This document shows, in pieces, positions 11,901 through 40,613 of a stretch of 64,000 nt of DNA (position 1 is its first letter; each line of letters opens with the position of its first letter). The notes below the pieces were generated by a model that was not told the DNA's origin, did no database searches, and saw nothing but the letters and a program-made list of their open reading frames with translations. The DNA comes from Balanoglossus misakiensis (Eukaryota; Animalia; Hemichordata). Location: NCBI GenBank assembly GCA_040954595.2, contig CM082576.2, positions 18,027,028 to 18,091,027 of the forward strand, in the 5' to 3' direction. Position numbers and translations under genes: made by a program.

Positions 11901-13473
11901 ATTATAATGTCGTTAAAAGTTCTCACAAAAAATAGAAATAGTAAAAAAGTGGTCTCGAACCAACATCAGTTGACATCCTCAGGTAAAACCTTTCCTGAAC
12001 CTTTCGCCATCACAATGTGTACTCGAAAAAGTCGGAAATTTTCCGCACTATATTGCAGCATAACTCCAATGATCTTATTTGCACCGCAGCTGTGCAAATA
12101 CGAGTTCCCTGCACCGTAGCGGTGCGAATAAGAGTTCCCTGGCCCCGCAATGATCTGACCGTTCTTTATTTACTCCTCGGCGACATAAAACGTTTTATTA
12201 CGGCTTAAATAACGACTTTTTCGCTCCTTGGTTGGTCATTCGGACGGAAAGACAGGGTTTTAGCGAGTTTATCTTTCTCTCTGCTGAGCACTCCGTTATT
12301 CAGACTTGCCCAAGTGAACCGCGACAAAAAATGGCCAAGTTTCTCTGCATGTTTGTTATACCAGACAGATAAAAAAAGCAGCGTAGATATTGAAATGAAT
12401 TGGATTTATGAAATTGTTAAAAATTACAATTATAATGTCGTTAAAAGTTCTCACAAAAAAATAGAAATAGAAAAAAAGTGGTCTCGAACCAACATCAGTC
12501 GACACCTTCGGGTAAAAGGCTAGCCTTCCTGAACCTTTCGCCATCATGATGTGTACTCGAAAAAGTAGGAAATTTTCCGCACTATATTGCAGCATAACTC
12601 CAATGATCTTATTTGCACCGCAGTGGACAAAAACGTTTTATTACGGCCTAAATAACGACTTTTTCGCTCCTTGGTTGGTCATGCAGACGGAAAGGCGCGG
12701 TTTAGCGATTTTATCTTTCTCTCTGCAGAGCACTCCGTTATTCAGACTTGCCCAAGTGAACCTCGACAAAAAAATGGCCAAGTTTCTCTGCATGTTTGTT
12801 ATACCAGACAGATAAAAAACGCAGCGTAGATATAGAAATGAATTGGATTTATGAAAATGATAAAAATTACAATGAAAATGTCGTTAAAAGTTCTCACAAA
12901 AAAGAAATAAAAATAAAGTGGTCTCGAACCAACATCAGTCGACACCTTCGGGTAAAAGGCTAGCCTTCCTGAACCTTTCGCCATCATGATGTGTACTCGA
13001 AAAAGTAGGACATTTTCTGCACTATATTGCAGCATAACTCCAATGATCTTATTTGCACCGCAGTGGACAAAAACGTTTTATTACGGCCTAAATAACGACT
13101 TTTTCGCTCCTTGGTTGGTCATGCGGACGGAAAGACACGGTTTAGCGAGTTTATCTTTCTCTCTGCTGAGCACTCCGTATTCAGACTTGTCCAAGTGAAC
13201 CGCGACAAAAAATGGCCAAGTTTCTCTGCATGTTTGTTATACCAGACAGATAAAAAACGCAGCGTAGATATTACAATGAATTGGATTAATGAAAATGGAA
13301 AAAATTACAATGAAAACGTCGTTAAAAGTTCTCACAAAAAAAGAAATAGAAAAATAAAATGGTCTCGAACCAACATCAGTCGACACCTTCGGGTAAAAGG
13401 CTAGCGTTCCTGAACCTTTCGCCATCATAATGTGTACTCGAAAAAGTAGTAAATTTTCCGCACTATACTGCAG
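6000..13473. repeat. Tandem array of ~530-bp and ~441-bp units (left part, ~15 units)
   Basis: The anchor aaaacgttttattacggc recurs at ~6102, 6632, 7160, 7691, 8219, 8660, 9191, 9632, 10163, 10690, 11130, 11661, 12188, 12630 and 13070. Identical short ORFs repeat with it. Confidence 0.97.
6383..6463 (-). promoter_or_regulatory. tRNA-like Pol III internal promoter (A box, B box) plus oligo-T run; one per array unit (first copy given)
   Basis: Minus strand reads GA-TGGCCAAAGGTT ... GTT-GGTTCGAGACC-AC-TTTTTTT. A-box T at 6456, B-box G at 6402 (54 nt apart). No acceptor stem. Confidence 0.45.
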
Positions 13474-13734
13474 TGTAGTAAATACCGGTTACTAACCTGG
13501 TAGGTACTACGGGTTGTCTTATTCCGGGCCACAGAGTTTTGCTTGGTACTGGTCGTCAGTCCTGGTAGCGTGTTGCTCTGCTGCTGGTCCGGGTCGTTCT
13601 CGTTCTGATAGTTGAGAAACGTGGGTAAAAACCAGTAGCACAGGTGCAGGGCATTCCGTAGTGCAATTACGTCAGAGGCGTCCCACCTGTACAGCAGGGC
13701 GCCACCAACGGCCAGAAGCCCACAAATTACTACA
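13474..13734 (-). repeat. 3' LTR (261 bp)
   Basis: Identical by eye to 40627-40887; TG...CA ends. Confidence 0.97.
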
Positions 13735-13755
13735 CTCTTCCCACTTTTCTTTTTT
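13735..13755 (-). other. Polypurine tract
   Basis: Minus strand AAAAAAGAAAAGTGGGAAGAG directly precedes the 3' LTR. Confidence 0.85.
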
Positions 13756-13856: not shown

Positions 13857-16631
13857 CTAGTGATATAGACGTCTGGTGTTACGGACAGTTGCTTCAAGAA
13901 GGTGCACTAGATCAGTCCCCCTTGAGTTAGCAACAGCCACGGCCACATCCCCTATAAGAGCTGGAGTACTGGTTACATCACGAGGGCCCCCAAGATACGG
14001 CGAATCTGTTTCGATTAACAGACGCTCGATGGGCACCTCCTTCAAAGCTCGAATCTGGCAACGGTCAAATTTGGTGGTCGTGATGGAGAAACCGAAGTAA
14101 CAATTCTTGAAGCGCTTCGACCACCTTTGAACAGTGTTGACCGTACCAGTAAAATTGTGGATATGTATTTTCTGCCGTGGCGAACACCATTCCTGTACTA
14201 ATTGCAATGCTTGGCAATGCACATCTGACCCATACTGGTCCCCATATGGCCCTCTAATGTGCAGGACTAAGGGTTTCTCAGGCACACACATGGCAAGTGC
14301 TCGAGAGAGAACCCTGTCTTGGGCGCTCCAGTATTTACTTGGCTCTGTGCGGTCGAGACCCACCTCCCCAAGGGCGGCTACCTGTGTGCTCGTGACAAGC
14401 CGCTTGAGGGCTTTAAAGGTCCTTTCGTCGGCTCTTGGAGCTTTCCTTGGATGGATCCCGATGGCGATACTCCAACCTTTGGGCCGGTTCAAATCCATGG
14501 GGTAGTACTCCGGATCGCAAAAGACCTCGACGCCCCCAATGATGTTGACAGGAAAATTCGCCCTTGGGCCATTATGCCAGTTAACCAAAGCTACTGATGT
14601 TGCAGGGCAGTCCCTACCGCGAAATCGAGCCAGTGTTCGGTCAAGATGAAAGTGGGAATCCATGGCTTCCAATAGACTGTCTGATTGTAGATAATCCTGT
14701 GCTGTCCCCTGTAACTCTTGCTCAATAGGTTGGTCAGCTTGGGATTCTATTGTAATTGAGTCCAGTATCACGTATTCAACCGGGAGCTCAATTTCTGATG
14801 GTGGGATCGGGACTGAGTCCTGTATCACGTGATCAACAGGTTGCTCAGCCTGTGGGATCCTTTCAGTACAGTCTAATGAAATTTCTTTCTCTACTTGATC
14901 ACCCCATGAGATTCCCTGGGACGTGGAGTCCTGTATCACGGATTCAACAGGTTGTTCCATTTCTCCCATACCTATAATCATTGCCAAGTCTTGGTGTGCG
15001 TCCTCCACATGGATCGGACTATTTCCTGAGGCTACAGGTGAATATGTGATCTCCCTCGCATGAGTTGGAGATTGGAACTCACCTTCATTTTCGGAAACCA
15101 TTTCCTGGTCGACACAGGAGCCAGTCTCCCCCCTAGGGGTAGGTGACCGCGGCTCGCCGTGATCTGCCTCAGGATTCTCTGTTACCATTTCCTGGTCTGC
15201 ACTTGGCGAGCAGGAGACAGTCTCCCCCGTAAGGGTAGGTGACTGAGGATTTCCGTGCTCTGCCTCGGGGCCTTCCAGTTCCGGCATCGGATGACATGGT
15301 GAATGCGAGGTGATCTCTGCCACTGGGGTGGGAGACCGGGACTCACCATGCTCCCTTGGGGGTACCACGGGTTGGAAGGCTTCCCGCTGCTCCTCAGTCA
15401 GGTGCGAAAGGAGGATGACGAGAATCCTCCAATGCAGCAGGACGGCTGGTGAATTCGGTGGGTGCAGCGAGAATCGTCGTGGTACGGCCCATCCGCTGGT
15501 CTGGCACAGTCGCTTCATCATCAGACAGTTGGCTTCGGTGAGCGCAGAGGATGCTGGGACTTCTTCCAAGTGATGTTGCAGGAAGTACTCCAGCAGCTTG
15601 GTGACAGTTCCTCTGGGGCCCAAAACCCAGCCCGCCAGCTTCAGCAGGGCATGAGTAACATCAGCTGTCTGCATGATAAGGGGGTTTTCCTGTAGACGGG
15701 GGTCGATATGGTAGAAGAAGCAGTGCCGTTTGAGACGTTTGGAGGTCTGCCCACATCCTGGAATAGGGCAGGTACATGAGCGGCTGTTGGTAGATTTTCT
15801 GCTTCTTCTACCCCTACAGGAATTGGTCGCCGCAGTCGTGGTGGTCTTCGACTTCGGCACCCCCTTCGGCTCCTGTGCCATCCATACAACGGAGCGTCGC
15901 CGCCGCTTCCCGTCACGCTGTATGGTCACCTCCAAACGAGATTCCTCACCCCGCTCTCGCTTCTTTGGTTTCGTGGCCGCCATCTTCTGCGTTCCTCTCC
16001 GTGGCTGGCTTGATGTCTTTCGTGGTGGCTCACGGGGGGTACTTTTCCGTGGCTCTGCCAGGGGTCGCCGCGCAGCTACTGCTGAGTACAATTCACGGGG
16101 CGCTGCAGAAGATGGTTGTGTCGATGTTCTTCGGGGTGAGGATGCCCGCGATGTTGAGGCGATGGAGGTGACTGGGTCCCTGCCTTGCATGGTGTCTTCT
16201 ACTACAACCGTCTCCCCCGACTTCTTCAGCAGGTGCTTGACAGTCGGGAGATCGGGCTGCGTCTGTAGGCGAACATCACGGCAGGGTCCAGACGTGACGG
16301 TACTGCTGGGACGGGACTTCCGTTGCGGGATCCTGTTCTTATGCGGATCCCGATGGAGAAGATGCTTGTACAGCCATTCCTCGGAGAAGATCACATCGGC
16401 TTCGCGGCGTGTAGTCTCCACCCAATGCCAATGGCCTCTCCGAGATGCTAGTTGATACTGGCGTAACAGCATCCTCTCCTTTTCAGGGAGCGTGACCTTG
16501 GCCAGCCCGATGCCGTAGGTGAGGTCGAGTGGTGGAAGCAGAATCCGTTTCCGGTCTGCCTCCACCACTTCTTGCCAGGTCATATGCTGCTTCTTAGGGC
16601 GAGGTCCCCCGCGATACCGCTGGGAGTCCAT
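13857..16631 (-). CDS. ORF3 (~924 aa): basic/disordered N-terminus, C2H2-like zinc finger, acidic repeat linker, C-terminal TatD-family metallo-nuclease
   Basis: TatD motifs DSHFHLD, IGIHP, ALGEVGLD, PLVLHIR, HIHNFTG, YFGFS, LLIETDSPY (13857-~14665). Zinc finger CPIPGC...HCFFYH at ~15706-15777. First ATG at 16631, just after the pol stop. Confidence 0.9.
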   Translation of the reverse strand: MDSQRYRGGPRPKKQHMTWQEVVEADRKRILLPPLDLTYGIGLAKVTLPEKERMLLRQYQLASRRGHWHWVETTRREADVIFSEEWLYKHLLHRDPHKNRIPQRKSRPSSTVTSGPCRDVRLQTQPDLPTVKHLLKKSGETVVVEDTMQGRDPVTSIASTSRASSPRRTSTQPSSAAPRELYSAVAARRPLAEPRKSTPREPPRKTSSQPRRGTQKMAATKPKKRERGEESRLEVTIQRDGKRRRRSVVWMAQEPKGVPKSKTTTTAATNSCRGRRSRKSTNSRSCTCPIPGCGQTSKRLKRHCFFYHIDPRLQENPLIMQTADVTHALLKLAGWVLGPRGTVTKLLEYFLQHHLEEVPASSALTEANCLMMKRLCQTSGWAVPRRFSLHPPNSPAVLLHWRILVILLSHLTEEQREAFQPVVPPREHGESRSPTPVAEITSHSPCHPMPELEGPEAEHGNPQSPTLTGETVSCSPSADQEMVTENPEADHGEPRSPTPRGETGSCVDQEMVSENEGEFQSPTHAREITYSPVASGNSPIHVEDAHQDLAMIIGMGEMEQPVESVIQDSTSQGISWGDQVEKEISLDCTERIPQAEQPVDHVIQDSVPIPPSEIELPVEYVILDSITIESQADQPIEQELQGTAQDYLQSDSLLEAMDSHFHLDRTLARFRGRDCPATSVALVNWHNGPRANFPVNIIGGVEVFCDPEYYPMDLNRPKGWSIAIGIHPRKAPRADERTFKALKRLVTSTQVAALGEVGLDRTEPSKYWSAQDRVLSRALAMCVPEKPLVLHIRGPYGDQYGSDVHCQALQLVQEWCSPRQKIHIHNFTGTVNTVQRWSKRFKNCYFGFSITTTKFDRCQIRALKEVPIERLLIETDSPYLGGPRDVTSTPALIGDVAVAVANSRGTDLVHLLEATVRNTRRLYH

Positions 16632-16666
16632 GATCTGTACAAGAAAGAATAAGAGACATGATGAGG

Positions 16667-19600
16667 TTACACTGAAACTGCGCTTATTTCGCTTGGTTTG
16701 CAGTTGGGACAAGAAAACAGTGCTTTTTTCTTAATTTCGGTTGGTGTAACATTCACACACGCTCCATGAAACCATTCATAGCAATAATCACACTGGATCA
16801 TAAGTTTCCCATCATCAGGTTTCCTGCAAAGGCAATATACTTCACCCATTCCTGCGCTGTCCTTAAGTAAGGTCTTCCTAAAGGTTACTATCCAGCGAGG
16901 AAGCTCTTTATCCTGGCAAAGCTTTAGCCGATCGTGATGGGCGGTCCAAACCTCTCTTCGCAATTTGATGCGGAAGAGATAGGGTGTGATTTTGGTGATG
17001 ATGACCCCTGGTCCTTTCCAAGGTGGGCATAGTTTCCGGCATTTGCCTTTAGTGGTTCCGGTATCCAACAGATATACTGGATCCCCTACCTTGAAGGACT
17101 GCTTGTTCACTCGGAGGTCGTAATCACGTTTCATTCTTTCTTGTGTGGTCTTCAGTATTTCCCGCGCTGTCTCATGAGAATTCGTTATGGCCTCCTTCAA
17201 TTCATACACATACCCCTCATGAGATTGGTCAGTGTTTGTCCTGGGAGGCCGGAATACAAGATCAGCGGGCTGGTTTATTTCCCTACCTAACATCATCCGG
17301 TTGGGCGTAAAACCAGTGCTGCGGTTGACTGAAGAGCGGAGAGCTCCGGCGATCTGTGAGAGAAATTTATCCCATTCTTTCTGTGACTTGATGTAGCATC
17401 TGATTGCGTTCATCAAAGTGCGATTCTGCCGTTCCGCCTGGCCATTAGCAGATGGTCTGTAAGAAGTGGTTCTTGTTTTATGGATATGAAGAATCTCACA
17501 AATCGCTGAAAATAACTGACTTTCAAAGTTTCTTCCCTGGTCAGTGTGAATTTCAAATGGATACCCGAACCTGGTAAAGAATTCAGCTACTGCGGCGTGT
17601 GCTGTTTCCTCAGCATTTTGTGTTGGCAGCGGTATACATTCTACCCACTTGGTGAATTGATCTACCATTACCAGGATATACTCATTACCCCGAGGTGTCT
17701 TGGGTAACGGCCCTAGGAAATCCAAGTGAACTCGTTCCATCGCTGCCCCCGCATGAAATAGGGTCAGCTGATGTCGGTGGTGTCTGTGTGCTTTCTTGTT
17801 GTGATTGCAAATTGCACACATTGTGACATACTTGCGAATGTCGTGGGACATCCTATACCAATGGTATTTGGTCCTGATTCTGGCTTGAGTGCGCTGTATT
17901 CCCTGGTGCCCACAAGATGGAATATCATGATTCAACCGTATAACTTCATCTTTCATGGTATTAGGGATGACTAGTTGTATGGTGTTTTCATCTGTGGCCG
18001 ACTTTCTCCACAGTACTCCCTCCTCAATGAAGTATAGGTCACGGTTGATCCAATAATTCTTTGCTGCAGGGCTGGAGAGTCTCAGCTCTCCTTCCTCAGG
18101 AACTTTCCCAGTTTCAAGCCATGTGATGAGAATCCCCAGTGTTTTATCAGTCTGCTGTGCCTGTTGGTATTCTTTGTGAGAATATCCTAGGATGGCTGTT
18201 CCCAGTTTAGTGGAATCCTCTCTGGATAGTATGCAGACTTGTACAGGATCCGGAAAGTGGGAAATTTCGAGGTTCGAATGAGGCACGTCGATTAGTTCAT
18301 CCTGGACTGTGTCACTGGTGATTCCGCAGCAAGTTAATAGACCCAAGTTACCTCCAGGGTCCCATGGCCAGGTCTCTTCATCTTGAATTGCTGGTTGTAT
18401 TCGTGGGTTCATGATACCGGTACATTGGTTCACCACATATGGCCCTTCGGTTTGGTGGAGTTGGCTGTTCCCGTGTTCGTTTCTGGGTTCAGCCATGGTC
18501 AGGGGAATTACATCATCCACCTCCTTGATGAACGGGCTCCAGTTTCGATGTGCTCTGCTGCAATAGTTGCATCCCCCGCAAGGTAAGGATTCCAATTTTG
18601 TTCCATGCTCAAAATTGGTGCAGGCACTTTGCTCGGGTAATCTTGACAGGGAGTCGGCGTTGATGTGTTGTTTTCCTGGTCGGTGTTGCACAGTAAAGTT
18701 GTACTGGCTTAGTTCTTCTAGCCAGCGAGCTAATTGGCCTTGTGGTTCTTTGAATCGTATTAGCCATAGCAAACTGTGATGATCTGTCCGTACCAGAAAT
18801 TTGTTACCAAGCAAGTAGTATCGAAACTGCCGGGTGAACCTTACGACTGCCAGCAATTCTTTTCTTGTGGTGCAGTACCGTCTCTGTTCAGGTGTCAGGG
18901 CATAACTTCCATAAGAAATTGTTCTCTCCTTGCCGTTCTGTATCTGGGATAACTCAGCTCCGATGGCAAAGTCTGAGGCATCCGTGTCTAGAATGAAGTT
19001 ATCCTTTGTATTGGGCAAGGTCAGAACAGGGGCAGCGGTGAGTGCTTTCTTGATGTCCTCAAAAGCTTGATGTTGCTCATACCCCCAGGCGAATGGTTTC
19101 TTCCCGGTTACACTGTACAGAGGTACCGCTAACTTGGCATAATCCTTGATGAAGGCGCGATGGTAGTTCGCAAATCCTGCAAATTTTTCCACGTCCTTCG
19201 TGTTGATAGGGATTGGCCATTCTTGGATCATCCGAATAGATTGATCTTCAAGAGATATTCTGTTTCTACCAACTTTCCTACCCAGGAAACTTACTTCCTG
19301 TTGGAATAACTCACACTTTCTTGGCTTGAGTTTCAGTTGGTACTTCCGTAGTCGTTTGAAGACTTCCCGGAGATTTTTAAGGTGTTCTTCGAAGCTTGAT
19401 CCGAGCACCATTATATCATCCAGAAATGCCAGTACGATGTCCCAAGTTAGGCCCCTTAGTACTAGGTTCATCACTCTGGAGAAAGTAGCAGGTGCGTTGC
19501 ACAGACCAAACGGCATTCGGGTAAATTCGTACAAACCGTATTTGGTGGTGAAAGCCGTTTTCTTGCACTCGGGTGGATTAATACTTATCTGCCAGTATGC

Positions 19601-21058
19601 CGAGTTGGCGTCCAACTTGGAGAACCATAGACATCCTGATAGAGTGTCCATACACTCCTCCACCAATGGCAGCGGAAAAACGTCCTTTACGGTGATGTTG
19701 TTTAGGGCTCGATAATCCACACACCAACGCACGCTTGCATCTCGTTTTCGCACTAGAACTGGTGCCGAAGCCCATTCGGAGATTGATGGTCTTATAACTC
19801 CGGCATTCAGCATTTTCTTTAAGTGGGCTTCTTCTTCCCCTGCAAAACACATTGGAGTGCGCCGTAGACGTTGCTTTATTGGTGGATTGTCTTTTGTGTC
19901 GACGCTATGTGTGATTGCAGTGAAATTTCCCAGATCAAATTCGTCCTTGGCGAAAACATGACTGCAGGATCTTTCAAACAGATTTCCTAAATGTGAAGGT
20001 AGCCCGCCTACCGGCTGAGGGCGTACTTCAGTCCTCTGTTGGATGTCAGGTGATGGGACGGTGATCACCTCCACTTCTGTAGCTGATGCGATAGGATCCT
20101 TGCTCTTCAGAGTTATATAATTCTCCGTCGGGTTGACTAAACAAACCTTAGGTGATTGTTCCCCCGAGTGAAGTGTCCTGGGCATCATTACTTTCAATCC
20201 CTGGGTTGGTTCTACCAAATAGTCGGTTAGATCCGTATCGAGTAAACAGGATATTCTGACCACACTATTCGGTGGGATGATTGTCCGTCGCTTCAAAGTT
20301 ACCTTTGCCACTTTTGGTGAATGATCCCTCTGTCCAAGGGTCATAGGTATGTGTTCCTCCCCCAAATGGAGCCAGTTGTTACTCATGTTGATGGTTGCTC
20401 CATTTGCTTGTAGGAAATCAACTCCCAGTAGCATTTCGTCGCCTATTGGGGCTACGTATATATCGGCATTGAAGACGGCACGTCCCAGCTGGATGTCAAC
20501 GGGTCCGACCAGGTTGGCTTTCATGGTTAACTGTCTTCCAGCTGTTTGCATGGTAACTTCCCGCAATATTGGAGGTTTTACTCGCAGACTGTTGTACAGT
20601 TGGTCAGAGATAATAGTGACTTCTGCGGCGGTATCGATGATAGCGGTAGCGGACTGGTCTCCAATTTTTGCTGGGATGCTATACATTGAACTGGACACAA
20701 GTTGGTTAATGACAACCATAGGCATGTCATTAGCTTCGGATGTTGCCATACTGGTCTTTGACGATTTTGTCTCTTCCACTGTTGAGTTGGTCACATCTGC
20801 GCAATGTGTACCATCATCAGTTGGAGTTGGTATAGTCGTTGTATACACATCTGCACAATGTGTATTGACATCAAGTGTTACCGATTCAGCTGATGGCGAT
20901 GGCACGTCAATATTACAGTTGCGATCGCCCTCCGTGGAAGCGTTGAGGCCGTAGGTTATGGGTTGTTGGGTCAAACTTTGGCCTCTGGGCTTGACCCTTT
21001 GGTGTTTAATGGACTGGCCGGCGCTGTTTCCTTCTTTTCCGATGTTCCATGGGGACAT
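16667..21058 (-). CDS. pol: Pol polyprotein: aspartic protease, RT, RNase H, integrase, C-terminal PHD finger
   Basis: IIDTAAEVT (PR); VRWCVDYRALN, MPFGLCNAP, AFLDD (RT); LDTDAS, TDHHSL (RH); H-x6-H...CAIC, DFLGP, TDQGRNF, NGQAERQN (IN); YCLC...CDYCYEWFHGAC...CPNC (PHD). 1463 uninterrupted codons. Confidence 0.97.
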   Translation of the reverse strand: MSPWNIGKEGNSAGQSIKHQRVKPRGQSLTQQPITYGLNASTEGDRNCNIDVPSPSAESVTLDVNTHCADVYTTTIPTPTDDGTHCADVTNSTVEETKSSKTSMATSEANDMPMVVINQLVSSSMYSIPAKIGDQSATAIIDTAAEVTIISDQLYNSLRVKPPILREVTMQTAGRQLTMKANLVGPVDIQLGRAVFNADIYVAPIGDEMLLGVDFLQANGATINMSNNWLHLGEEHIPMTLGQRDHSPKVAKVTLKRRTIIPPNSVVRISCLLDTDLTDYLVEPTQGLKVMMPRTLHSGEQSPKVCLVNPTENYITLKSKDPIASATEVEVITVPSPDIQQRTEVRPQPVGGLPSHLGNLFERSCSHVFAKDEFDLGNFTAITHSVDTKDNPPIKQRLRRTPMCFAGEEEAHLKKMLNAGVIRPSISEWASAPVLVRKRDASVRWCVDYRALNNITVKDVFPLPLVEECMDTLSGCLWFSKLDANSAYWQISINPPECKKTAFTTKYGLYEFTRMPFGLCNAPATFSRVMNLVLRGLTWDIVLAFLDDIMVLGSSFEEHLKNLREVFKRLRKYQLKLKPRKCELFQQEVSFLGRKVGRNRISLEDQSIRMIQEWPIPINTKDVEKFAGFANYHRAFIKDYAKLAVPLYSVTGKKPFAWGYEQHQAFEDIKKALTAAPVLTLPNTKDNFILDTDASDFAIGAELSQIQNGKERTISYGSYALTPEQRRYCTTRKELLAVVRFTRQFRYYLLGNKFLVRTDHHSLLWLIRFKEPQGQLARWLEELSQYNFTVQHRPGKQHINADSLSRLPEQSACTNFEHGTKLESLPCGGCNYCSRAHRNWSPFIKEVDDVIPLTMAEPRNEHGNSQLHQTEGPYVVNQCTGIMNPRIQPAIQDEETWPWDPGGNLGLLTCCGITSDTVQDELIDVPHSNLEISHFPDPVQVCILSREDSTKLGTAILGYSHKEYQQAQQTDKTLGILITWLETGKVPEEGELRLSSPAAKNYWINRDLYFIEEGVLWRKSATDENTIQLVIPNTMKDEVIRLNHDIPSCGHQGIQRTQARIRTKYHWYRMSHDIRKYVTMCAICNHNKKAHRHHRHQLTLFHAGAAMERVHLDFLGPLPKTPRGNEYILVMVDQFTKWVECIPLPTQNAEETAHAAVAEFFTRFGYPFEIHTDQGRNFESQLFSAICEILHIHKTRTTSYRPSANGQAERQNRTLMNAIRCYIKSQKEWDKFLSQIAGALRSSVNRSTGFTPNRMMLGREINQPADLVFRPPRTNTDQSHEGYVYELKEAITNSHETAREILKTTQERMKRDYDLRVNKQSFKVGDPVYLLDTGTTKGKCRKLCPPWKGPGVIITKITPYLFRIKLRREVWTAHHDRLKLCQDKELPRWIVTFRKTLLKDSAGMGEVYCLCRKPDDGKLMIQCDYCYEWFHGACVNVTPTEIKKKALFSCPNCKPSEISAVSV

Positions 21059-22130
21059 TCCCTCTTAAAATGGCCTATCTCGCCGCACCCATAGCAACCA
21101 CGGCTTCTCGGAGATGGGGATCGGTACCTTGATGTCTGCTGCGTTGTCACCACTTTGGTTAATTCGGCCAGTTGGGTGGTGACAGTCTGCAAAGTTGCGC
21201 TGATTGCCGACATCTGCGTCTCCAGCCTCGACATCCTCCCCTGCATCTCAGTTCCTCCGTCTTTGCTTCTCGGGCGGATGGGAGCTCTTTCAGGAGAGGG
21301 TGATTGTTTTCGCTCGTACCTGGAGACAGATCGTGCTTCGATGTTGGCTTTCGGGTATTCCGGATCAGGACTTACAAATCGTACTTCCCGCCTCTGCGAT
21401 CGGATGCCATAGATTGCTTGATGATTATACTGGAATCTTTTGACAGTATCGATCGCTGCTTCGATGGAAGTTGGACGCTGATTTGCTGCCCATTGGCCTG
21501 CTTCTCGATCACAACATCCTTGGCAAAAGCGCATCACAGCTTGAAGCTCTATGGTGGCATCGCTGCTTTCTTGAAATGCCTGCATCGCAAGTGAATAAAC
21601 CCTGTCCGCCCATTCTTCTAATTTCTCCTCGGTGTTTTGTCGAATCTGGGCGAACTGAAGCTGACTGGATTCTGGAATCTCTTTCAAGCCGAATCGTTTC
21701 TCCAGTTTTTTGAGCAGCTCGTGATAGCTGACGTCTGCGTTTTTCTGGAGGATCCTGGTATAAACTTCACTTGCTTTCCCCTCTAAACACCAGCACAGAT
21801 AATTTTTGCATTCATTGAATGACATGTCCTGCATCTCGGCAAATTTCGTGAATTTTACCTGATATGCCTGCCAGTTTCCGGAGCCATCGTAGATTAGCGT
21901 CCTGGGAACTGACATTGGGATGTGACGATGACTTGATCTGTCCATCCGGTTATCATGCTGGTAGTAGGGTTGAGTTCTGGGAGGAGCGAATTCTGTTGGA
22001 TAATGGCCATCATAATAATCCGGTGATGCACCCGCTCGTGGTCTGGACACATTCACCCGTGATGGACGATAATTCTGCTCATCTTCAGGCCAGGTCGCAT
22101 ATCGCTGTTCATCGCGAACACTTCGTGGAT
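20971..22130 (-). CDS. gag: Gag, C-terminal part (capsid-like region and CCHC zinc knuckle)
   Basis: YDGSGNWQAY...LEGKASE...LEKRFG...QIRQ..EKLEEWA and CYGCGEIGHFKREC. The first residues of the listed ORF (MHKPGLSSCA) come from the CACTA end. Confidence 0.93.
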
Positions 22131-22998
22131 ATGCACAGGATGAAAGCCCAGGTTTATGCAATGCTTAAAGTTGGTATAAATATGATTAAAGCTGTTCTTG
22201 CAATCATCTTTATGCAGCATAAAGATATTCATTTATACATCTTTATGCAACTCTATAAATTGGTATAATGGCTTACCACAAATAATCACCTTTATGCACT
22301 CTCATAAGGGTGAATAATTCATGTACACCTTGCATCACATTTATGCATTCTAATAAAGGTGAATAAAAGGATGAATTTCTATACACCTAGCGTCACGTTT
22401 ATACAGCTTTATGTCAGAATGATCAGAATATTTGCTTTGGCTTCTGATTCTCATTTCTCCTTTTGGAATATTCACTTTATCCACAGTGAGTTTACGAATG
22501 TTGGGGGAATAAGTGTCATTAACAATGAAAGACTTATACCTCCTTTGTCCAGTACACTTATTGTTTCATGTATAACTAAAGGGTAGAATATATGTTAGTG
22601 ATAGTTCTTTTCTGTGGCCAGCTTTGTCTTCAGCCAATCTTTTCATTCCTGCACACGTACCAGTACACTCCACCACCGTCAAATAGATCACACATACACA
22701 AGCTATATATACATGCAGTGGGACATTGTCATGAATTCTATGATTTTTTATTACTATAAGTACTAGTAACTACTATTTACAATATAATGAAAAATTTATT
22801 AAACTAGAAAGTAAAAAAACTGAAAGAATAACCTTTACGAACTAAAATACGAACTTAAATAAAAATCACAAACACAAGTAAAAACAATTCTAAAGTAATT
22901 TCAAATGTCATTAAAAATGAAAAGTCAAGTAGAAATATTTAGTTAAAAATAGAAAAACAAAATAAATAAACACATTATAAAATGAAGTACAATATCAA

Positions 22999-25900
22999 TC
23001 AGTGGGGACTAGTACATCCCTCCTCCAGAGAACCTGTGGTTCCAGAAGAAGACGCAGAATCATCTGGACTTAACCCAGACGCAACCCTGACTGCCCAATC
23101 CTCTGGGTAGTCAGGCCGCTCCCTGGAAGAGGGGGGTCCATCTGACCTGGGAAGGCGAAGCTGGCGCTGCTTTGCCGATAGATGTCCATTAACTGTTTTT
23201 TGCTTTTACGCAACTTTTTCCTTTCCCAGGTCAGAGGACGTCTTATGTATTGCTTGATCTTCCCCTCATCATCAAAATCGCTCTCTTCCGAGGAGATATA
23301 CTCAGCTGTTAGTACGCGTTTAATTTTCTCCTTGTCCTCTTCAGGCCAGTCAACCGATGTCAGGGAGGACTGAAGCTGTTTGAGTTTCTGAAAATGAACA
23401 ACATAGGATTTGTCAATAAAAAATCAACGTAGAGCTCATATTTAACAAGATCCTATTGCCATCATTGGATTTGTAATTGTTTATATATAAAAAATCTCTA
23501 ACAAAAAAGACAAGAATATTACTCAACGAACCCAATTGTTACATTAACAGATGGAACTTTCGCAGTCACCTAACTGGTACATACAACAGTATTAGACATA
23601 AATTTGAAGCTACTCACCTCTCTTTTACGCCCCTGTCGACGGCATGTTTGTTTGTGGGCCTCTGTCTTTCCTTGGCTGTTCAACCGATGTTTGTTCTTTT
23701 GCCCCCGAAAAAATGTTCTGATTGCTTCTGTAATAGGAATTAACAGAAAATTAGCAAGCAGCCTAAGTTGTTTTTACTTTTGTATGTGTCATGTTAGCAT
23801 CTCCTTAAAGCTTCAACTTTAGAAGGAATGTGAGCATATTATAAGTAAATATGTCCAGCTCAAGTAAGTAGAGGACTTTCCTTTGATCCAACCATGGCGG
23901 TACTAAGAGTGCCTCCATGATCCAACGCAAAGGGTTGTGATTTTGCAATATTAATTAAAAGTATCAGATATTTAATGTTATATCATAATCAAAATCCATT
24001 TACCTTTGGCCTCGAGTGTGTTGATGTCATCACATCTTAACTCCTGCAGCAAGATTTCACATGATTGCTGGTTCTCCACAGCATCAAATCTATAAAAAAG
24101 AGAGAAATTTCATGAACCATTTAATTATTTTTTGTCAAGTTATCCTAGGCTAAACAGATGAAGTATGTGGCTTCTAGAATTCTGGCCCCAACATGTTCCA
24201 GCCTTGGTCGATGCGGCCTCTCTTTTCAATGACCCACATCAATGTGGCCCCTAAACCCAAGTTTCAGTGTCCTATCACTATATAGTGTTGTGTCATTTCA
24301 GCCCCCTGACGGATGCAGGTATAATTATATAGATTTATTGTATCTTAAATAAGTAAACTTAATTCTTGTGTCAAAAAAACTATTGTATGGGGCATGCAAA
24401 GTCATCAGCACAATTCAAAGATAAAAACATAATCCACTGGCTTCTGTGATGGAAAAATGATCAATTTAATTTAACAGGAACATTTTATTACTAACATATC
24501 ATTGTGTAGTTGTGAATAGAAAGAATGGCATTACACGTATAAGTTATCAAATTCACGCTGAATGGGAAGGCAATTTTGGACCGTGAGAAATTTCATTCTT
24601 ACAACTTGGAATGTATATCTTTAAATTGATGAAGACCTTTACAACTGAAAACTTGAATAACATACATGTAGGGATAAACTGTGTTTACGCCATCTTGAAA
24701 ATTTGCAGTGCATTATGGGTCAATTGAGTTCCGGTTGAGGGGGAGTAGCGTCTACAACCTTACCTATCCAATTTTCCAGCGGTTTAGTCAGATTTTCTTC
24801 AAGTAACGTTAGTAGTAGTAGTTACTTGAAGAAAATCTGACCAAACCGCAGGAAAAAATGGATAGGTTGTAGGCGCTACTCCCCCTCAACCGGAACTCAA
24901 GTGACCCATAATGCACTGCAAATTTTCAAGATGGCGTAAACACAGTTTATCCCTATACAAAAGGTCCACCTGTACTTCACAACATTAAAAATAGAGAAGA
25001 AATGTAAATACCTCTCAGTGACATTAAGACCAGGAAAGTCATCCCTCTGCCTCAGTAAGTTGTACTTTGCACGGACTGTTCTCTGGGGTGAAAATATAAA
25101 GTACTATGTTAGTAAAATTGTTAAATCATTTTTATTTAAAACATTCTGACAGTTCATTTGTTTGCTTCAATCACCCTATCAATCAACATTTATGGCATAG
25201 ATTAGCCTGGTCACCATACCCAGTGTGTTGTAGATAGACTCACACACATCGAAAACACGCTGGGTATGGTGACCAGGCTAGGCATAGATAGGCCTAAGTG
25301 CATATTTCTTGAAATGTATCTTTTGCACAGCACTGGCCACTATCAAAATTTGCATTGTAAAGGTTACTAAAACAAGCATTTATGCAACATGTGGTTCCGC
25401 ACAAAAAGGTCAAAATGTTATGCATATTTTAGAAATTAACCACAAAAATACTGAAAAAGTAGCCCAAGTGTCACACTGGGTAAAATTAAACACCTGACAT
25501 TGTATGTGTCCACCTGACACCTGGCCCCAAACAGATAGGTTGGAGGTGTTAATCCTTAGTTACACAAGCTCAGGTCTGGCCTGAAAAAAGCGTCTCAAAT
25601 CTGAAGCATTTCATTCACACATATTTATTCCCTGTGTGACCACCATATAATTAAAGCTTGTACCCCATTATAACCAATGGTCACAACAAGAGACACTGAC
25701 GCACAGATTGTTAAACAATGCTATTGTAATGCTATTGTTTGGTAGCTTTGTCAGGAATGTGTAGCATTAATGACATATGCAAATTCAAACTGTGATACTA
25801 GTATTGACCTCTGACATTTATCAGGTGACGACTGAGTATTTCAGTGTTCAATTTATAAGTTCTCCTAAAATCTTTCAAACATAAGAGCCCTTCCACACCG

Positions 25901-26549
25901 AGTCGCAAAATGTACGCGATGTTAAAAAGAAATGTACGCGACGGCCGTGTCAGGCTACCCCTATTTGACGACCTCAGGAAGCTTAATTATGCGTACCAAC
26001 AAGCGTCACGCTTTATGTGCTTGCGAAGCTTCAGTCCCCCGGTCCGTAGCTGGAAATAGCAGGTGCGTGTCTCGGTAAAGACCTACACACACAGGCACGC
26101 GAAAAGATCGCTTCGTGATCGGTCGCGAAATACGCGAGAGCCAAAAATTTCCTGTCACGAAAATAACCTGTTTTACAGTACCTTATTATTATACCACGTA
26201 CTGATCACCTTCCATTGAGACCCACCATAAAGCTACAACCACAGACCTCCATGCTAATACCGAGGTCTGCTCCGATCGGCTTATGGCCCCGTAGGACAAC
26301 TTCAGGTTGCCCGTGTGTCCCATTGCATTAATGTTAAACAACGGACGATTAACTATGGTGCGAGAGTTGTATTTAAAAAGAAAGAATCATACTCACAGAC
26401 ACGATGTTGCTAACATGTATCTTGGATTTTCTGCGGGCTGCTGATGTTGCGTGAAGCGCTGAGAGTTTTTCTTCTATTACCTTTAGGGACATCTGCATTG
26501 CCGGTACTTGTTGAGCCGCGGAGCAACCACAAAACGTATTTTCATTCAT
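22999..26549 (-). CDS. Spliced second gene of the CACTA element (5 exons; acidic SSEESD / RPLTWE type, resembling C14orf93-like proteins); frameshift in the last exon
   Basis: GT-AG exons ~26549-26397, ~25082-25012, ~24089-24005, ~23727-23618 and 23387-22999 join in phase: MQMSLKVIEEKL...RTVRAKY...AIRTFFRGQK...EYISSEESD...RRPLTWERKKL; GPPSSR...DWAV follows in a shifted frame. Confidence 0.65.
24669..24955. mobile_element. ~287-bp near-perfect palindromic (foldback) MITE in an intron
   Basis: tagggataaactgtgtttacgccatcttgaaaatttgcag... mirrors ...ctgcaaattttcaagatggcgtaaacacagtttatcccta. Confidence 0.85.
25203..25280. mobile_element. 78-bp MITE with 21-bp TIRs and a 9-bp TSD
   Basis: TAGCCTGGTCACCATACCCAG...CTGGGTATGGTGACCAGGCTA, flanked by GGCATAGAT on both sides (25194-25202, 25281-25289). 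Confidence 0.85.
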
Positions 26550-28170
26550 AGTTGAAGACGATGCAAAGAACTTCTGAGTTTGTTGTAATAAACGACATGG
26601 TATTTATACTGCTGAGGAAAGGTTGACTTTTCAAAATTCCCGCAAAAGTCAAAGGCAGCAACTTTGATTGGTTGTAAGAATATCCCCGAACTAATAACCA
26701 ATCAACGTTAAATTCACAATCACGTGTCTCAAGGATTCCGTGCCTGTACAATAAACTTGATAAACATCCGGTGTTTTTAATGTCAACATGCGTCGATCAG
26801 ACGCTACAGGACGCTTCTGAAAGACGCTACGAACATCATACTGTGCTTCACTGACTGTGCTTCGAGGTTTCTCACTCCTGAGTCCAATGATCGAAACGCA
26901 AACGTGGCTCAAGGTACGTATCCTTGTTAAATTGTTGATATTTGTCTGGAGGAGTGGGCATCATTATCTTTGGACCCGGGCCGGGCGCAGTAGGCGTACG
27001 ATCGCGTGAGACGCACGCGGAGCCGCGACTGATGTAGCCGATGTAAAACAAAACTAAACCCCTGTCCGTTTACCTTTTAGCTTTAAATTTGATAAGTTCT
27101 TGCCGCGGATCAAAGACTAGATATCGCAAAGCTTTGATTAGGTGGTTGTCGGTAAATATTTATTGATAGTAAGTGGCAAAATCGCCATCCGAACATATGT
27201 TTAACAATCGCATTCTGCCCTTTCCGCTTCGTTAGGGGTGGACCACTTGATTTCAGAGGGTGAAGACAAAATTGTCGAAAGTTTTTTTTTTTTAGCCGGG
27301 AAAAAAAATGTTCGTGCGGGCTAAGTAAAAAACAAACAAGTATGATTCCGACAAAGCTTTGAAAAACCTGGTTGAACAATACCAAAAAATTAAATGCTCA
27401 ACAGTCGCCATTTGGGAAATAATTCCTCCAGCTCCCATGAATCAAATGGTCTACCCCTTACAAACCTTTCTACTATATACTGCGGTTGCATCAGTCGGGG
27501 TTTCGAGTTCCAACTAAGCATGATTTTGATAGCCTCGGTCATGTGTGAGGCTTGTATGACACACATGATTAATTATAATATAATTTAAGGCAGCTAGTAA
27601 GTATATATGTCCAAAGATAGAGTCTAAATGTAGATACAGTGTATATGTACTCTGGAATGATCAACGTGTTAGGGTGTGTAAACTATGTGCATACGAGAGA
27701 CAATGCTGCATGGTTGAGTCAGACTGGAGTAGCAATGGCAGAATGCTCAGCTGCTTTTACTTGTACTTGCTGATGTAGCTTTACAGGAAAGCAATATATA
27801 TACTAGCACGTGGATATTGTGGTCTCAAATATGTGTCAACCAAGCAATTTTCCTCTTCAAATTTTACATAAGGATCATGATAATTAGAAAGAGTTGGCAA
27901 CAATAAGTAGAACATGTCTAACATTTTCTGAAGTTGTGTTTTGATAATTCAGTTGAATATCATACCAGTTGGTCGCATACTGAAATTAAATGTACAATGA
28001 CTTTTAACATTAACGTTTTTATTACTTCTGTTTCAACAGCAACTGCAATATTACAGCAAACCAGTTTCCTGTATCTGTCACCTGCACTTGGATTTTGACA
28101 GTAGCTTTATGTTTGCTTTTGAATGCCTCATATTCACCCTTGAGTGATTTACTCCCAAGACATTCATGAA

Positions 28171-31100
28171 ATGGTAAGTTTCAATGCTTATATGTATCGT
28201 TGTTACACAATATAGTTCAAAGCATATAATAAATGTTGCTATACGGTGCTTGAAAGATAGAATTTATGCATACTTGCCAAATTTCATTGTAAAACCAGAA
28301 GCGATGCAAAATAGGGTTTCATGCGTAGGTAGTGATTTTCCAAGAAGTCCAGTTATCAATTTGGTTCTACAAAGTTTGAAAATTTATGGCTGTGATTGTA
28401 AAGAAATTGGTATCAAGTCCAATTTGCACAATGTTTTGAAAAATTAATGACAACTTTTCTTTTATTTATAGGATTTTCAAACACCAAAGAGAGGTCGTGT
28501 GTGTCCAGTGTGTCATGAGACCTTCAGTACAAGAAACTTTTTGAGACATAAAAGAACATATTTCAATTATCAATCCTGTTCCTGGGAGGTACATATACAT
28601 GAAAAAAGATCATCAAAATCCAGACGGAAAATTACAATGATTCATACAAAGAACCCACTGGATACTGAAAGCTCTGATGATAATGGTAATTTAACTGCAA
28701 CATTTATTTAGTTCTGACATTGCCCAATTTCAGTTGCCTACTTTTTCTGCCAGTGGTCTCCTAACATTGTATGCCAGCACCATTTTGTCACATGGTGCGT
28801 AGATGTAGAATATGTTGCTGTGTAGTTTTTTTGTTTTAGTGTGATTTCAAAAACATGCAAATATAGTGTACACCCTCTTCGGGGGGGGGGGGGTCACTGT
28901 AAAGTGTATAGTTCGCTTGCATCTATCGGTGTGACCATATGTGTGTTGGAGTTGAACTGGTCCAAGCAGAATTCTTGCTGGCATCTAGTTTTCTTATCAA
29001 CTATTTAAAAAAATATTGTTAGTGTCATGCTCTGGTTATTTTGTGATGTTTTTTCATTTCTGAAATGTGTTGTGTAACAACAACATGTACGTGTTTGTTC
29101 TTTCCAGGATGTGGTATCCCAGATGCTGAACCTTTTATGATGTCACCAGGCTCTCCTTTGGAATCAGCTTTTAGGTGTCATCTGATAAAGAAGGCACAGG
29201 CCAGTACTCCTAATATATCCACTGCATCAAGTGAGAATGTCACTGAAGACGGAGGGTTGTTGAATAAGGATGACTCGGACTGGGATTTGCAGGTAATTAC
29301 TCAATCCATCCCATGAATTTAGACTATGTACACTGTCAACACAGTTGGTGTTATGGTACTGTTACTGGTTTGGTGGCAAGCAAGACATTACATACTTTAA
29401 AACAGGAATTTTTTACGAATGATACATTTTTGCAAACTACGCAACAGTCAAAATAAACGCGACAACAAACTGTCGTGTAAAATGTTTTTCTGAGATAATC
29501 ATGCAGTGAATTATGAGAACATAACAGTTGTCTCTTGATATCGCCGGAAAATTTCACGTTTTTACAGTATTACAAAGAGAATGCCATAAGGCAAAATAGT
29601 ATTGTTTAACAATGACATATTTTACCTGGCAATTTGAAGCAACTTACAAGATTTTATTTGGTATATCAAGCCACATTGAAAAATGTCTCTTTGACTTTGT
29701 AAGAATATCTGACTGGTTGGTTGTCTATGCCAAACCATGATGACATTGTAAACTTGGTGATTAAAATTAAATCTGCCAAACCATGATGACATTGTAAACT
29801 TGGTGATTAAAATTAAATCTATTATATATCTTTCCCTTTTTCATAGTGGTCTGGCTCTGATAGTGACATCTCAGGAGAGGAGTCAGCGTTCAGCGATACT
29901 GAAGATGGTATAAGTGGTAGGGCAAGTCAAGTCCAGGAAGCTGCAATTTCATCTAGTGATAGTGAAGACGATGATGGTGGGGTAATTTGGGAAGAGGAAA
30001 ACGAAGAAGAATTTCTACAAGATTTGGGTCAACCTTTATTGGTTCAAAGACACAGGTCCAAAATAGCTAAAGTAAATGAGTTGGTTTCATGGATTCTTTA
30101 TTTTCTGTTGTATTGGCAAGCCAGCTGTCATGTCAGTGATAATTGTTTGTCATGGCTTTTACAGTTTCTGTCAACTGTTTTTAACATCATTGGGGTAACT
30201 GTGCATAATGAATATATAACTGAACTTGCTGTGTGTTTACCAGCATCTCTGTATATGCTTCGTCAGTGTGTGAACCTTGACAGGGATGATTTCCTTAAGA
30301 AAGCTGTTTGTCCAAATCCTAGATGTGCTACATTGCATGATATTGATAACCTTGCTGTTAGACAGAATGGCAGATTCTTTGCCAAATGTTGTGACAAGAA
30401 GAGATTTAAGAATGGGAAACAAGTAAAGTGTGGACAGCCACTTGCAAAGCATGTGATTTTAAATGGGACTGTTAGATTCTATCCAATGAAAGTGTTCTCA
30501 TATGTCAGTCTTATTGACTCAATAGAAAGTATCTTGCTTCGTGCAGACATACCTGCTAAACTAGAAGAATGGAGAGAGAAACATACAGAACAAACAGACT
30601 GTGAAGGTAACAAAATATATACAGATATTTATGATGGCAACATATGGAAAGAATTTCAAACTTATGATGGTGAAGATTTTCTAGCAAAAGAATGGAATTT
30701 AGCATTATCAATGAATGTTGATTGGTTTCAACCCTTCAAAAACAGAAATGATTACTCTGTTGGTGTGATATATTTTGTGATACTAAATATGCCACGGGTA
30801 ATCCGCTTTAAGTTTGAAAACGTTATAGTTGCTGGAATCCTACCTCCTCTTGATAAAGAACCATTCAGTTTGAATTCTTTTCTCCAGCCTTTTGTCAGTG
30901 AATTACAGAAACTTTGGAAAGGTTTGAATTTAGGAACCAGTTCATCAAGTGTCCCTGTCAAAGTAAGAGCAGCTCTACTTTCTGTTGTGTCAGATATACC
31001 TGCTGCCAGAAAAATAGGTGGTTTCAAGTCTCATGCAGCCAGTGTTGGTTGTTCAAAGTGTTATAAAGTATTTCCTGGTGGCTTTGGAGAAAAGAAGGAC

Positions 31101-32540
31101 TACTCTGGCTTTGACAGGGATAACTGGCCAAAGAGAACAAAGGCAAAGCATAATAAATATGCCCATGATGTAAATAATTGTAAAACTGTCAAAGAATCTA
31201 ACAGGCTTTCTCAGAAGTATGGGACATATTACTCTGTTCTTGTTGAGCTACCATACTTTGATTGTGTTAAGATGATTTCAATTGATCCAATGCATAACTT
31301 ATTTCTTGGGATTGGTAAAAAGATGTTCAAGGTATATCTAGATATGTTCTTATCACCCAAAAAACTTAGTGTTCTTCAAAATAGAATACAGTCCATGACA
31401 GTAGCATGTGACATTGGTAGGATACCCAATAAAATTGCTTCAAATTATGGGAAATTTTCTGCTGATGAATGGAAGTATTGGATTACTGTTTTTTCCATGT
31501 ACTGCTTGAATGGGCTTATTCCTGAGAATCACTTATTATGTTGGGAACGGTTTGTTTTAGCCTGTAAAATATTATGCAAGCCATACCTGTGTGAAGCTGA
31601 TATCAGAAAAGCTGACATCTTGTTATTGAACTTTTGCATTAAGTGTGAGACGCTGTATAGTAAGAAAATGATTACTCCAAACATGCACCTTGTGTGTCAT
31701 CTGAGAGAGTGTTTATTTGACTATGGACCCATTAGTGCATTTTGGTGCTTCCCTTTTGAGAGATATAATGGGTATTTTGGGGATATTCCCACTAATAACA
31801 GGTCAGTAGAAATACAGTTTATGAGGAAAATTACAGTACTGAGGTTTGTACAAAACAAAGAAATGAAGAATGGTCTTTCTGGGATATTCTCAAATCTGAT
31901 TGAAAGACCAGGATCAAAACAAGATGTATGCAAGGCGAGCAATTTCTTTCTTCTGAGTGCTCCTGATGCAAAATTAATGGAAAACATTAACTGGGGATGT
32001 AATGAATCTGTATATGTCCCAAATGCGTATGTTGAAGGAGCCCTTTCTGTTGAGGATACAAACCTAATTAAAGCTGTATACGAGTATATGTATCCAAATA
32101 AAGTTGCAAGCTGTATTAGTAAACTTGTAAAAAAATATGCATATGTATATATCTTTGGAGAGAGATTTGGGTCTAAAATGGCATGCAGAATGTTAAGAAG
32201 TGCAAGAGTTATGGCTAAATGGGCAGGTAACACTGGGGACTTTGATATTTCTCCATGTAATCTTCGACCTTGTCAGGTTGATTGGTATTTTAGTCACTCT
32301 GTTGAGATAGATGGCAAGAGACTTGTACACAACTTTGCAATGGTAAGATGGTATAAGCCACATGAAAACAAGGACAAATTTGGTAATTGTGTTGAAGTCT
32401 GGCAACAGAAGACATTTGAACCATATGGGAAGTGTAGCTTTTTGCCAATACATCGTATTTCTTGCCGCTTTGCCTGTACTGATTTGAAAGATAATAGCCA
32501 AGTTGTCAGTGCAATCAACCGCAGAGTTGTTGCATATTAA
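28171..32540 (+). CDS. CACTA/EnSpm-type transposase, spliced (exons ~28171-28173, 28472-28685, 29108-29292, 29847-32540)
   Basis: DIYDGNIW, LSMNVDWFQPF, DIPAARKIGGF, CSKC, IDPMHNLFLG, PNMHLVCHL, GPISAFWCFPFERYNG. Upstream exons have canonical GT/AG sites and stay in phase, encoding CPVC...H and an acidic tract. Confidence 0.9.
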
Positions 32541-38500: not shown

Positions 38501-38934
38501 AATGTCGATGACATATAGCAAAGCAAAACGGTTAAATTAGGCTATTGTTTCAATTGTATGACTGTCAAAGATCGAATGAGGTGGTGGTATTTTAATAAGA
38601 AAAAGTAGCTAGGCCACCAGTACCGCAAAGTAGCCGACCAGGTTGCCGATGGCTGGCGCTTCCTGAAAACTGTGGCCGTCTTTATAACGTGCATAAATGT
38701 GTATATATTCGTTGAGTCATTTAACCATCTTTATACTTTGCATAAAGGTGCATATAATCGGTAAGCCATTATACTCATTTACGCAACCAATTAAAGGAGA
38801 TAGCAAGATAAACACTGTTGACCAACTTCACACCTCTTTAAGCGGTTGCATAAAGGGGCTTGTAAAAGAAGACCAACTTTATGCAGTATTATGCAATTGC
38901 ATAAAATGAGTTAAAATGCCTATTTCGTGCTGTG

Positions 38935-39448
38935 ATGGTCTACCATACGCAGGAGCATCTGGCCTGTACGCAGGATGGAATGAACTATCATACCCCCGAG
39001 AGTCGGTATGATGTTGACTTACCCTATCCTGCGTATAGTCTGGTTCGTCAAATCGCCTCGATCGAATAGGTGCTTTGGGTTGTTGATGTCGTGAAGGTCG
39101 TTGAACATGTCTGCTTTCGCGTTCTTTCGTGACCTTGTCAATCCTTTCCATCCATTCCTTCATGCTATCTTCATCACTATCCTTCCCGCTGTCTTCCTCA
39201 TCTTCCCAGAACGGGGCGAGATGGGTAGTTGTGTTCATGGATGGTTTGGCTGAAGCACCTGGTGGGTCGAAGTCGGCCATCTCCGTGAATTCTTCGGATG
39301 GTTTGAACCTAGGAATACTGCATACCATCTCATATGTTACATAGCCATGTCGTTCACGTAATCGCAGAATCGCCTTGGCTATTTTCCGTCCCACTCCAGG
39401 TAGACATTGAAGAGTTCCTAGAGTACTGGTGTTGACGTTGATTTTCAT
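38935..39448 (-). CDS. gag: Gag, N-terminal part with a ComEA-like helix-hairpin-helix domain
   Basis: MKINVNTSTLGTLQCLPGVGRKIAKAILRLRERHG matches the ComEA/HHH_3 pattern. Joins 22130 in frame after CACTA removal (AYGRP-YPRSVRDE; 557 aa total). Confidence 0.88.
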
Positions 39449-40613
39449 GATGGCGCGTTAGAAATTATTGAGATGGAAGTTGCAGATACCGTTGTCGGAA
39501 AATATTACCCACACAAGGACAGAGTAATATTTAACAAAGTGATATTACTCGTAATAATTACTGAGCAATACCCAAATTGATCAGTTTGTCACAAGAATAA
39601 TCAATGACAATGACCAATCAATTATATCACAACAATAATAGAACCCGCAATTATACAGAGTAATATAATGTGATAATAAGTACGACTGATATCAATAATA
39701 CAGTAATTGGAATGGCTCACAATAATAAAACTCGCAATAATACTGAGTAATACAATGCGACACCAAATATTATTGATATAGCGAATAATTGAACAGTTTC
39801 AACACTTACCAATTGCTGAGGAATTACAGTTCTGTACTGATACTGTGTGGTACAACTAGTAAAAATGCGAAACAAAGCGGAATTTGTTAAAGCGAAACTT
39901 TTCAGAAGTAAAACAACAAATAAAAGACAAGTCCGAAAGCTGGAACTTGTCCGCACAAAAAGTACGTAAAATTATGACGAAAGGTGCGGTGTACAGAACT
40001 GCCACAAAAAATGGCTTCTTTGACGAAATGGCTTCCTCGTCAATGCAATGGTGGCACCAATACTAGCAGAAAGTTACTTTCCAAGCTATCCGTACACACA
40101 CAACGGCAGTATAACGGGCTAGGAAGTATAACTGCAAATCTTACCTTGCCGTGTTCGGAAGTTCGCCGTACACACAAAAAATACGGTAAGACAAAGTACA
40201 CGTAAAACAACACAGAAATAAGTTGTGAAACTTTTCCTTGAAACGTGCACAGAAAAAAAAACGGCACAGTGTAGCGGAAAATTCCTCTCACTGAATTTCT
40301 TGAACTTGGCCCCAGCTGTCCGAACTTCAATAAATATTACAAGCTTTACCGGAACAACTGGAGATTCGTTCCCAGTTTTCTCTCGACTTCCACTAGTTCT
40401 CTGTCTCCCACCAGAAAAACTAATGAAGACGGTTTCTTGGTGCAAGTGTTGAAAACTGAAAGCACTTGGGCGTCCGCACTACTCCTATAAGTTTCAAGCG
40501 GAAAGCCGCGACGCAACTTTAACGATAGCGAGTACTCCGACTACTTATCCTCAAAAATTGGCAAAAAGTTACCAACGGAGTTTTTTCACCTTTTCTCCAC
40601 TAGGGTTGAAAAG

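Follow-up and report, generated by a model that had tools for sequence, protein, structure and literature searches.

Does a TatD nuclease that an LTR retrotransposon encodes behind pol and ahead of its polypurine tract belong to the element, and what could it do there? We addressed this question in a 64,000-nt stretch of Balanoglossus misakiensis DNA (the window), in which a first-pass annotation had placed an apparently intact TatD nuclease in the env position of an LTR element. The five motifs behind that reading were all present, in order and inside the LTRs, in one open, intron-free frame of the minus strand: DSHFH (H693 and H695; window positions 14654 and 14648), GEVGLD (E789; 14366), LHIR (H824; 14261), HIHNFTG (H858; 14159) and ETDSPY (E907 and D909; 14012 and 14006), residue numbers being those of the stop-to-stop translation P0001. 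The stop codon at 13857-13859 lies 101 nt ahead of the polypurine tract, in agreement with the roughly 100 bp annotated. The frame extends far upstream of the motifs, with 957 codons from stop to stop and 924 aa from the ATG at 16631, so that TatD makes up the C-terminal 270 residues of a long third ORF (ORF3), after about 650 others. Thus, the intact domain and its env position stood, but the idea of a stand-alone TatD gene was rejected.

The surrounding element is a Ty3/Gypsy LTR retrotransposon, as LTRs, a target-site duplication, a primer-binding-site-like sequence, a polypurine tract and the pol domain order were all present. The two LTRs (3' LTR, 13474..13734; 5' LTR, 40627..40887; both minus strand) measure 261 nt each, have TG...CA ends and are 100% identical to each other, and they are flanked by a 4-bp duplication, GCAG (left copy 13470..13473, right copy 40888-40891), which sits in an array of 440- and 530-bp satellite units. 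A candidate primer-binding-site-like sequence (TGGCGCTG...; 40613..40624, minus strand) was found 2 nt past the 5' LTR, and the polypurine tract was read from the sequence at 13735..13755 (minus strand). The pol frame (16667..21064, minus strand) is open, overlaps gag in another frame and, according to Pfam profiles, encodes protease, RT, RNase H and integrase in that order, with a C-terminal PHD finger last. The 5' part of gag (38920..39448, minus strand; ATG at 39448) begins with a helix-hairpin-helix motif (HHH_3), and the 3' part (20971..22150, minus strand; insertion boundary approximate) contains a capsid-like domain and a CCHC knuckle. Because a DNA transposon of about 16.7 kb (22150..38920, plus strand; ends approximate), with a Transposase_21 ORF at 29847-32540, interrupts gag, the 5' LTR lies 27 kb away. 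The element is a young insertion, and with its gag split by the DNA transposon this copy is non-autonomous. Besides ORF3, a further unusual module in this lineage is the HHH_3 motif that opens gag both here (39448-39330, minus strand) and in the related locus L089 described below.

From its N terminus, ORF3 consists of a poorly conserved basic arm (15780..16631; net charge +36, with clusters such as KRRRR), a domain combining a conserved C-x4-C...H...H zinc-finger-like motif with a helical region (15375..15779; residues 318-452; without a Pfam match), an acidic linker (14667..15374; net charge -39, modelled with low confidence and predicted to be disordered) and the TatD domain (13857..14666), all on the minus strand. 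TatD_DNase (PF01026) was the sole Pfam match within ORF3, scoring 124.5 bits against a gathering score of 27 (E 6e-36). In a model built from a 71-sequence alignment, pLDDT was mostly >90 over the TatD domain, and the predicted fold matched E. coli YcfH with a Z score of 29.5 and an rmsd of 2.4 across 245 residues, so that the TatD identity annotated earlier was confirmed by both profile and fold. The HxH motif assigns the domain to group II as defined in the available part of PMC10085689; by its sequence it is a group II nuclease domain with all seven catalytic positions present and predicted activity. The zinc-finger/helical domain reached pLDDT values mostly >85 in the alignment-based model and folded poorly from the single sequence (pLDDT 42), and in fold searches with the two-domain model the matches were all taken up by the TatD barrel. 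We rejected an env gene, as ORF3 showed neither a signal peptide nor a transmembrane anchor: its N terminus is basic, its highest 19-residue hydropathy (1.38) falls in the helical domain, and TatD is all that Pfam recognizes. Bacterial contamination was also rejected as a reading of the TatD feature.

We then asked how widely this protein occurs. Successive protein searches returned 41, 35 and 6 long relatives (the third search starting from a divergent member), and those named came from oysters, a pearl oyster, scallops, Dreissena, Mya and two Lytechinus urchins. An exhaustive search gave 188 clusters at 50% identity (E<=1e-30), and near-identical clusters reached 125 members, which fits mobile elements. 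Among 228 near-full TatD domains, 194 were family-type and 34 bacterial-type. All seven catalytic positions were kept in 159 of the 194 family domains, the misses including N-terminally truncated rows, and the domains keeping them are otherwise 25-47% identical. In 117 proteins, TatD is preceded by 250 residues or more, and the zinc-finger/helical profile matched 113 of them, a figure that is partly circular because the profile was built from about 70 of those proteins. A phylogeny against host TATDN1/2/3 and bacterial TatDs had been proposed at the outset; a tree made by a quick method from 92 of these domains, all of them family or bacterial rows, split the 58 family rows from the 34 bacterial rows with a support of 100 and thus gave the separation from bacterial TatDs only.

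The linkage to pol was followed in genomic loci. A pattern scan of prokaryote genomes yielded 13 loci, four of which were family members in Sedimenticola bins (L087, L089, L092 and L094), with nine others. On independent contigs, L089 combines HhH-gag and pol-PHD with an ORF3 of 931 aa that includes TatD, L087 and L094 have a PHD finger followed by ORF3-TatD, and L092 is too short to tell. One protein, P0265, has integrase, PHD and TatD fused in one frame, and pol matches were found in 2 of 338 proteins, namely P0265 and P0035 (protease region). The linkage thus rests on four loci, the window included, and one fused ORF, the other family proteins being without context. Identity to the window was 74% for RT (L089 only), 58-61% for integrase, 36-41% for TatD and 27-30% for the middle domain. 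Since the pol-linked rows are scattered over the tree, the link between pol and ORF3 is old. The best 80 loci of a metagenome scan were bacterial-type TatDs, 24-33% identical, and the viral contigs scanned gave six bacterial-type loci and no family members.

Several side observations were made in these loci. The four Sedimenticola loci are animal-type retrotransposon contigs inside bacterial MAGs, where the family proteins are annotated as bacterial TatD hydrolases; these contigs are likely host DNA. L087 contains a 7.76-kb repeat unit (1-7761) in which a polypurine tract, the start of an LTR, an integrase-PHD interrupted by one stop and ORF3-TatD were recognized but no RT or RNase H match; it is possibly a non-autonomous derivative that retained TatD, and it also has an NXPE4-like ORF at 322-900. 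In P0072 and P0073, a NADAR domain is fused behind TatD.

Copies within one sample were also compared. High-depth contigs matched the window identically across TatD. Contig depth was about 360 for the window-identical contigs and 43-53 for the diverged ones, which fits several copies and does not give a copy number, both runs being of the same sample. For one low-depth sister contig, the changes listed comprise 13 that are synonymous and 8 that are non-synonymous (pN/pS 0.17, p 9e-5), and this contig carries an in-frame deletion beside E907; a second minor sister contig has a stop, has lost H693 and gave a pN/pS of 0.6. The first-pass annotation had named a dN/dS near 1 with frequent stops in sister copies as evidence against its reading. 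A synonymous excess was seen in the one sister, and both sisters are now decayed; we read this pattern as selection in active lineages with decay of old insertions. Within 16920-20044, 30 listed sites distinguish pol in the window from the majority contigs of this sample; 19 of them are non-synonymous, with a cluster near 18300-18520. With pol differing yet the TatD region identical, the window copy is possibly a recombinant or a member of a different subfamily.

To place the TatD domain among its cellular relatives, we compared it with TATDN2 and YcfH. The window segment FPVNIIGGVEVFCDP has a spacing identical to human TATDN2 FPKEFQGC-SDFCDP, and FCDP occurs a single time in the available text of the PMC10085689 supplement, in the TATDN2 row. 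Among the rows visible in Fig. S1B of that paper, the KIHxHxF and FPN..GF segments of ORF3 matched the TATDN2 row only, and FPN..GF in TATDN2 and ORF3 is without the gap of the other rows; the alignment was taken from PDF text in which some letters are displaced. Regular expressions for the FCDP run, KIHxHxF and FPN..GF matched 150, 109 and 110 of the 194 family domains, respectively, and 0 of the 34 bacterial ones. Two catalytic glutamates and the aspartate lie at positions matching TATDN2, and C738 aligns by spacing with the catalytic-site Cys538 of TATDN2 as described in the available part of PMC10711561, standing 51 residues before E789 as against 55 in TATDN2; a cysteine occupies this position in 148 of 194 family domains. 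The position of Cys656, another catalytic-site residue of TATDN2, is Asn859 in the window copy and a cysteine in 164 of 194 relatives, and it is not diagnostic because 32 of the 34 bacterial domains also have the cysteine. ORF3 is further predicted to share with TATDN2 a long disordered N terminus ahead of a C-terminal group II TatD domain.

In a profile search against solved structures, the best match was YcfH (1.8e-41), with TATDN1 and TATDN3 at about 1e-18, and TATDN2 was absent among the matches both of this search and of the protein searches. ORF3 has in common with group II enzymes such as YcfH (PDB 1YIX, 6L25) the HxH motif, all metal ligands and the barrel, whereas YcfH is only about 26% identical, single-domain and without the three TATDN2-type motifs; against TIGR00010 the ORF3 domain scored 103 bits, under the cut-off of 206. 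TATDN2 itself is a cellular gene, while ORF3 is element-borne, has the extra zinc-finger/helical domain and carries Asn at the Cys656 position. Taken together, the motifs and their spacing argue that the ORF3 TatD domain probably descends from TATDN2.

We also considered how ORF3 might be expressed. A YAG stands 1-3 nt ahead of the first ATG of ORF3 in all four linked loci (the window, L087, L089 and L094); under a stricter pyrimidine-tract rule, 3 of these 4 sites passed compared with 24 of 627 ATGs, the acceptor rule having been chosen after the sites had been seen. In the window, the splice-acceptor-like site, read from a pyrimidine tract and CAG at 16635..16660 (minus strand), ends 3 nt ahead of the ORF3 ATG. 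A donor-like site is present near the LTR 3' end in the window (CAG/GTTAGT at 40650) and in L089, and the window has a second donor-like site in the leader (40145, minus strand). These signals suggest an env-style spliced message for ORF3. The env ORF3s of errantiviruses and retroviruses share with it the position between pol and the polypurine tract and the acceptor-like site just before the start, but env encodes a fusogen, whereas ORF3 has an enzyme domain and is without a membrane segment.

What, then, could the protein do? In the available parts of the literature, TATDN2 degrades R-loop and hairpin RNA, with little DNase and very weak AP activity, requires E593/E705 and binds by means of its disordered arm (PMC10711561); it is expressed in germ cells (PMC12709183), and a putative TATDN2 is named in the Hox cluster, in a legend only, of the giant squid paper (PMC6962438). 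Because TATDN2 is reported to act on RNA and R-loops and to have little DNase activity, the likely substrate shifts away from the cDNA. Sequence alone does not reveal the substrate, however, since ssDNA and AP sites are also cleaved by group II TatDs (PMC10085689, in part). The reading that we favour, at somewhat short of an even chance, is that ORF3 is expressed on its own and would work for the element in the nucleus as an RNA/R-loop nuclease. In this scheme, TatD would have been captured anciently from the host TATDN2 line; splicing from the donor in the 5' LTR or the leader to the acceptor ahead of the ORF3 ATG would produce its own mRNA; the product, with a basic arm and no membrane segment, would be nuclear; and the zinc-finger/helical domain may target a metal-dependent 3'-5' nuclease activity. 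R-loop or hairpin RNA would then be removed at loci and transcripts of the element itself, so that the element might stay transcribed and RNA-guided silencing or replication damage might be limited in germ cells. The RNA substrate and the benefit are the least certain parts of this explanation. The fullest version, an ancient and so far undescribed Gypsy lineage across molluscs and echinoderms with a spliced, TATDN2-derived R-loop/RNA nuclease that is aimed by its zinc-finger/helical domain, itself without a known family, and counters germ-line RNA silencing, is put forward tentatively as less likely than not.

The age of the gene bears on one competing account, in which a host or bacterial TatD mRNA was recently and passively captured and has no role. 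The intron-less frame and the decay of the two minor sister contigs would fit such an event; against it stand the same layout in other elements at 36-41% TatD identity, the family-specific zinc-finger/helical domain, the fully supported split of family from bacterial rows and the synonymous excess in the diverged sister contig. This account is thus largely refuted and very improbable. With its family breadth, pol linkage and kept catalytic residues, ORF3 is very likely an old, selected accessory gene and not recent cargo. The barrel could instead serve chiefly to bind nucleic acid or to act as a decoy for host TATDN2, catalysis being of lesser importance, since TatD diverges faster than RT or integrase; the retention of seven catalytic positions in most family domains despite their divergence makes this improbable.

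A DNA-directed helper whose 3'-5' exonuclease or AP-endonuclease activity would trim cDNA ends or flaps, or process integration gaps or damaged cDNA, is close to the reading of the first-pass annotation and a more serious competitor, though still an unlikely one. The available part of PMC10085689 ascribes ssDNA exonuclease and AP-endonuclease activity to E. coli YcfH and TatD as well as to human TATDN1/3, YcfH was the best solved-structure match, and the element has other DNA or chromatin modules, with HhH in gag and PHD on the integrase; moreover, L087 retains integrase-PHD and ORF3 without RT, and P0265 fuses integrase to ORF3. The motifs, however, favour TATDN2 with its little DNase and very weak AP activity (PMC10711561, in part), and because ORF3 starts at a separate ATG that follows an acceptor-like site, it is probably outside the packaged polyprotein. 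A weapon that degrades the nucleic acid of competing elements or viruses, or host small-RNA precursors at large, instead of intermediates of the element itself, seems doubtful to the same degree as the binding or decoy role. Hairpin cleavage by TATDN2 (PMC10711561, in part) and the NADAR domain of P0072 are in keeping with it; the TatD-family nuclease QatD of a bacterial anti-phage system also matched weakly, but its score of 56 bits is far under the cut-off of 230. To our knowledge, most Gypsy elements integrate without an enzyme of this kind, which further counts against the DNA-directed helper.

Few enzymatic accessory genes are known to us in animal LTR retrotransposons. The closest precedent is found in the Juno and Vesta LTR retrotransposons of bdelloid rotifers, whose ORF3s encode DEDDy 3'-5' exonucleases (PMC5408684, in part). 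As in our element, a non-envelope enzymatic ORF3 with intact catalytic residues stands in the env position and encodes a 3'-5' nuclease (here, a predicted one), and the Juno/Vesta ORF3s are typically separate spliced units; they differ in having an unrelated, RNase D-like fold, in being family-specific and confined to rotifers and in having no reported zinc-finger/helical plus TatD layout. The activity of the DEDDy ORF3 was never shown, and TatD does not occur in the text of that paper that was available. A TatD gene was likewise not mentioned in the available part of a survey of env-bearing Gypsy elements (PMC13524379), and the mollusc and annelid Gypsy surveys (PMC6238403, PMC8556966) describe no such gene in the main-text passages that mention ORFs or DNases. 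A literature search over titles and the starts of abstracts, with Repbase and subscription journals outside its scope, found no report of TatD or TATDN2 in retrotransposons. An enzymatic non-env ORF3 is thus already known, and its TatD nuclease version, with a likely TATDN2 origin, is likely new.

A nuclease gene kept across two phyla together with its catalytic residues likely has a function, and an assay would be easy. If ORF3 proves to be an R-loop or hairpin RNase, retrotransposons would manage RNA:DNA hybrids or small-RNA precursors through a captured host enzyme. If the present reading is true, hundreds of invertebrate genes annotated as 'uncharacterized' or 'TatD', some of them in bacterial or symbiont MAGs, would be retrotransposon genes.

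Other features were noted in the window. The LTR element splits a satellite that covers about 5970-13470 and 40888-42400 and shows a higher-order arrangement of 440- and 530-bp unit types; a single tRNA call within this satellite looks spurious and was set aside. A Helitron-like element at 909-5478 (minus strand) contains an ORF for an OTU protease as well as a 63-bp coding tandem array. Further RT-bearing elements lie at 43129-49549 (minus strand) and 56136-60446, together with an element that has 424-nt inverted repeats.
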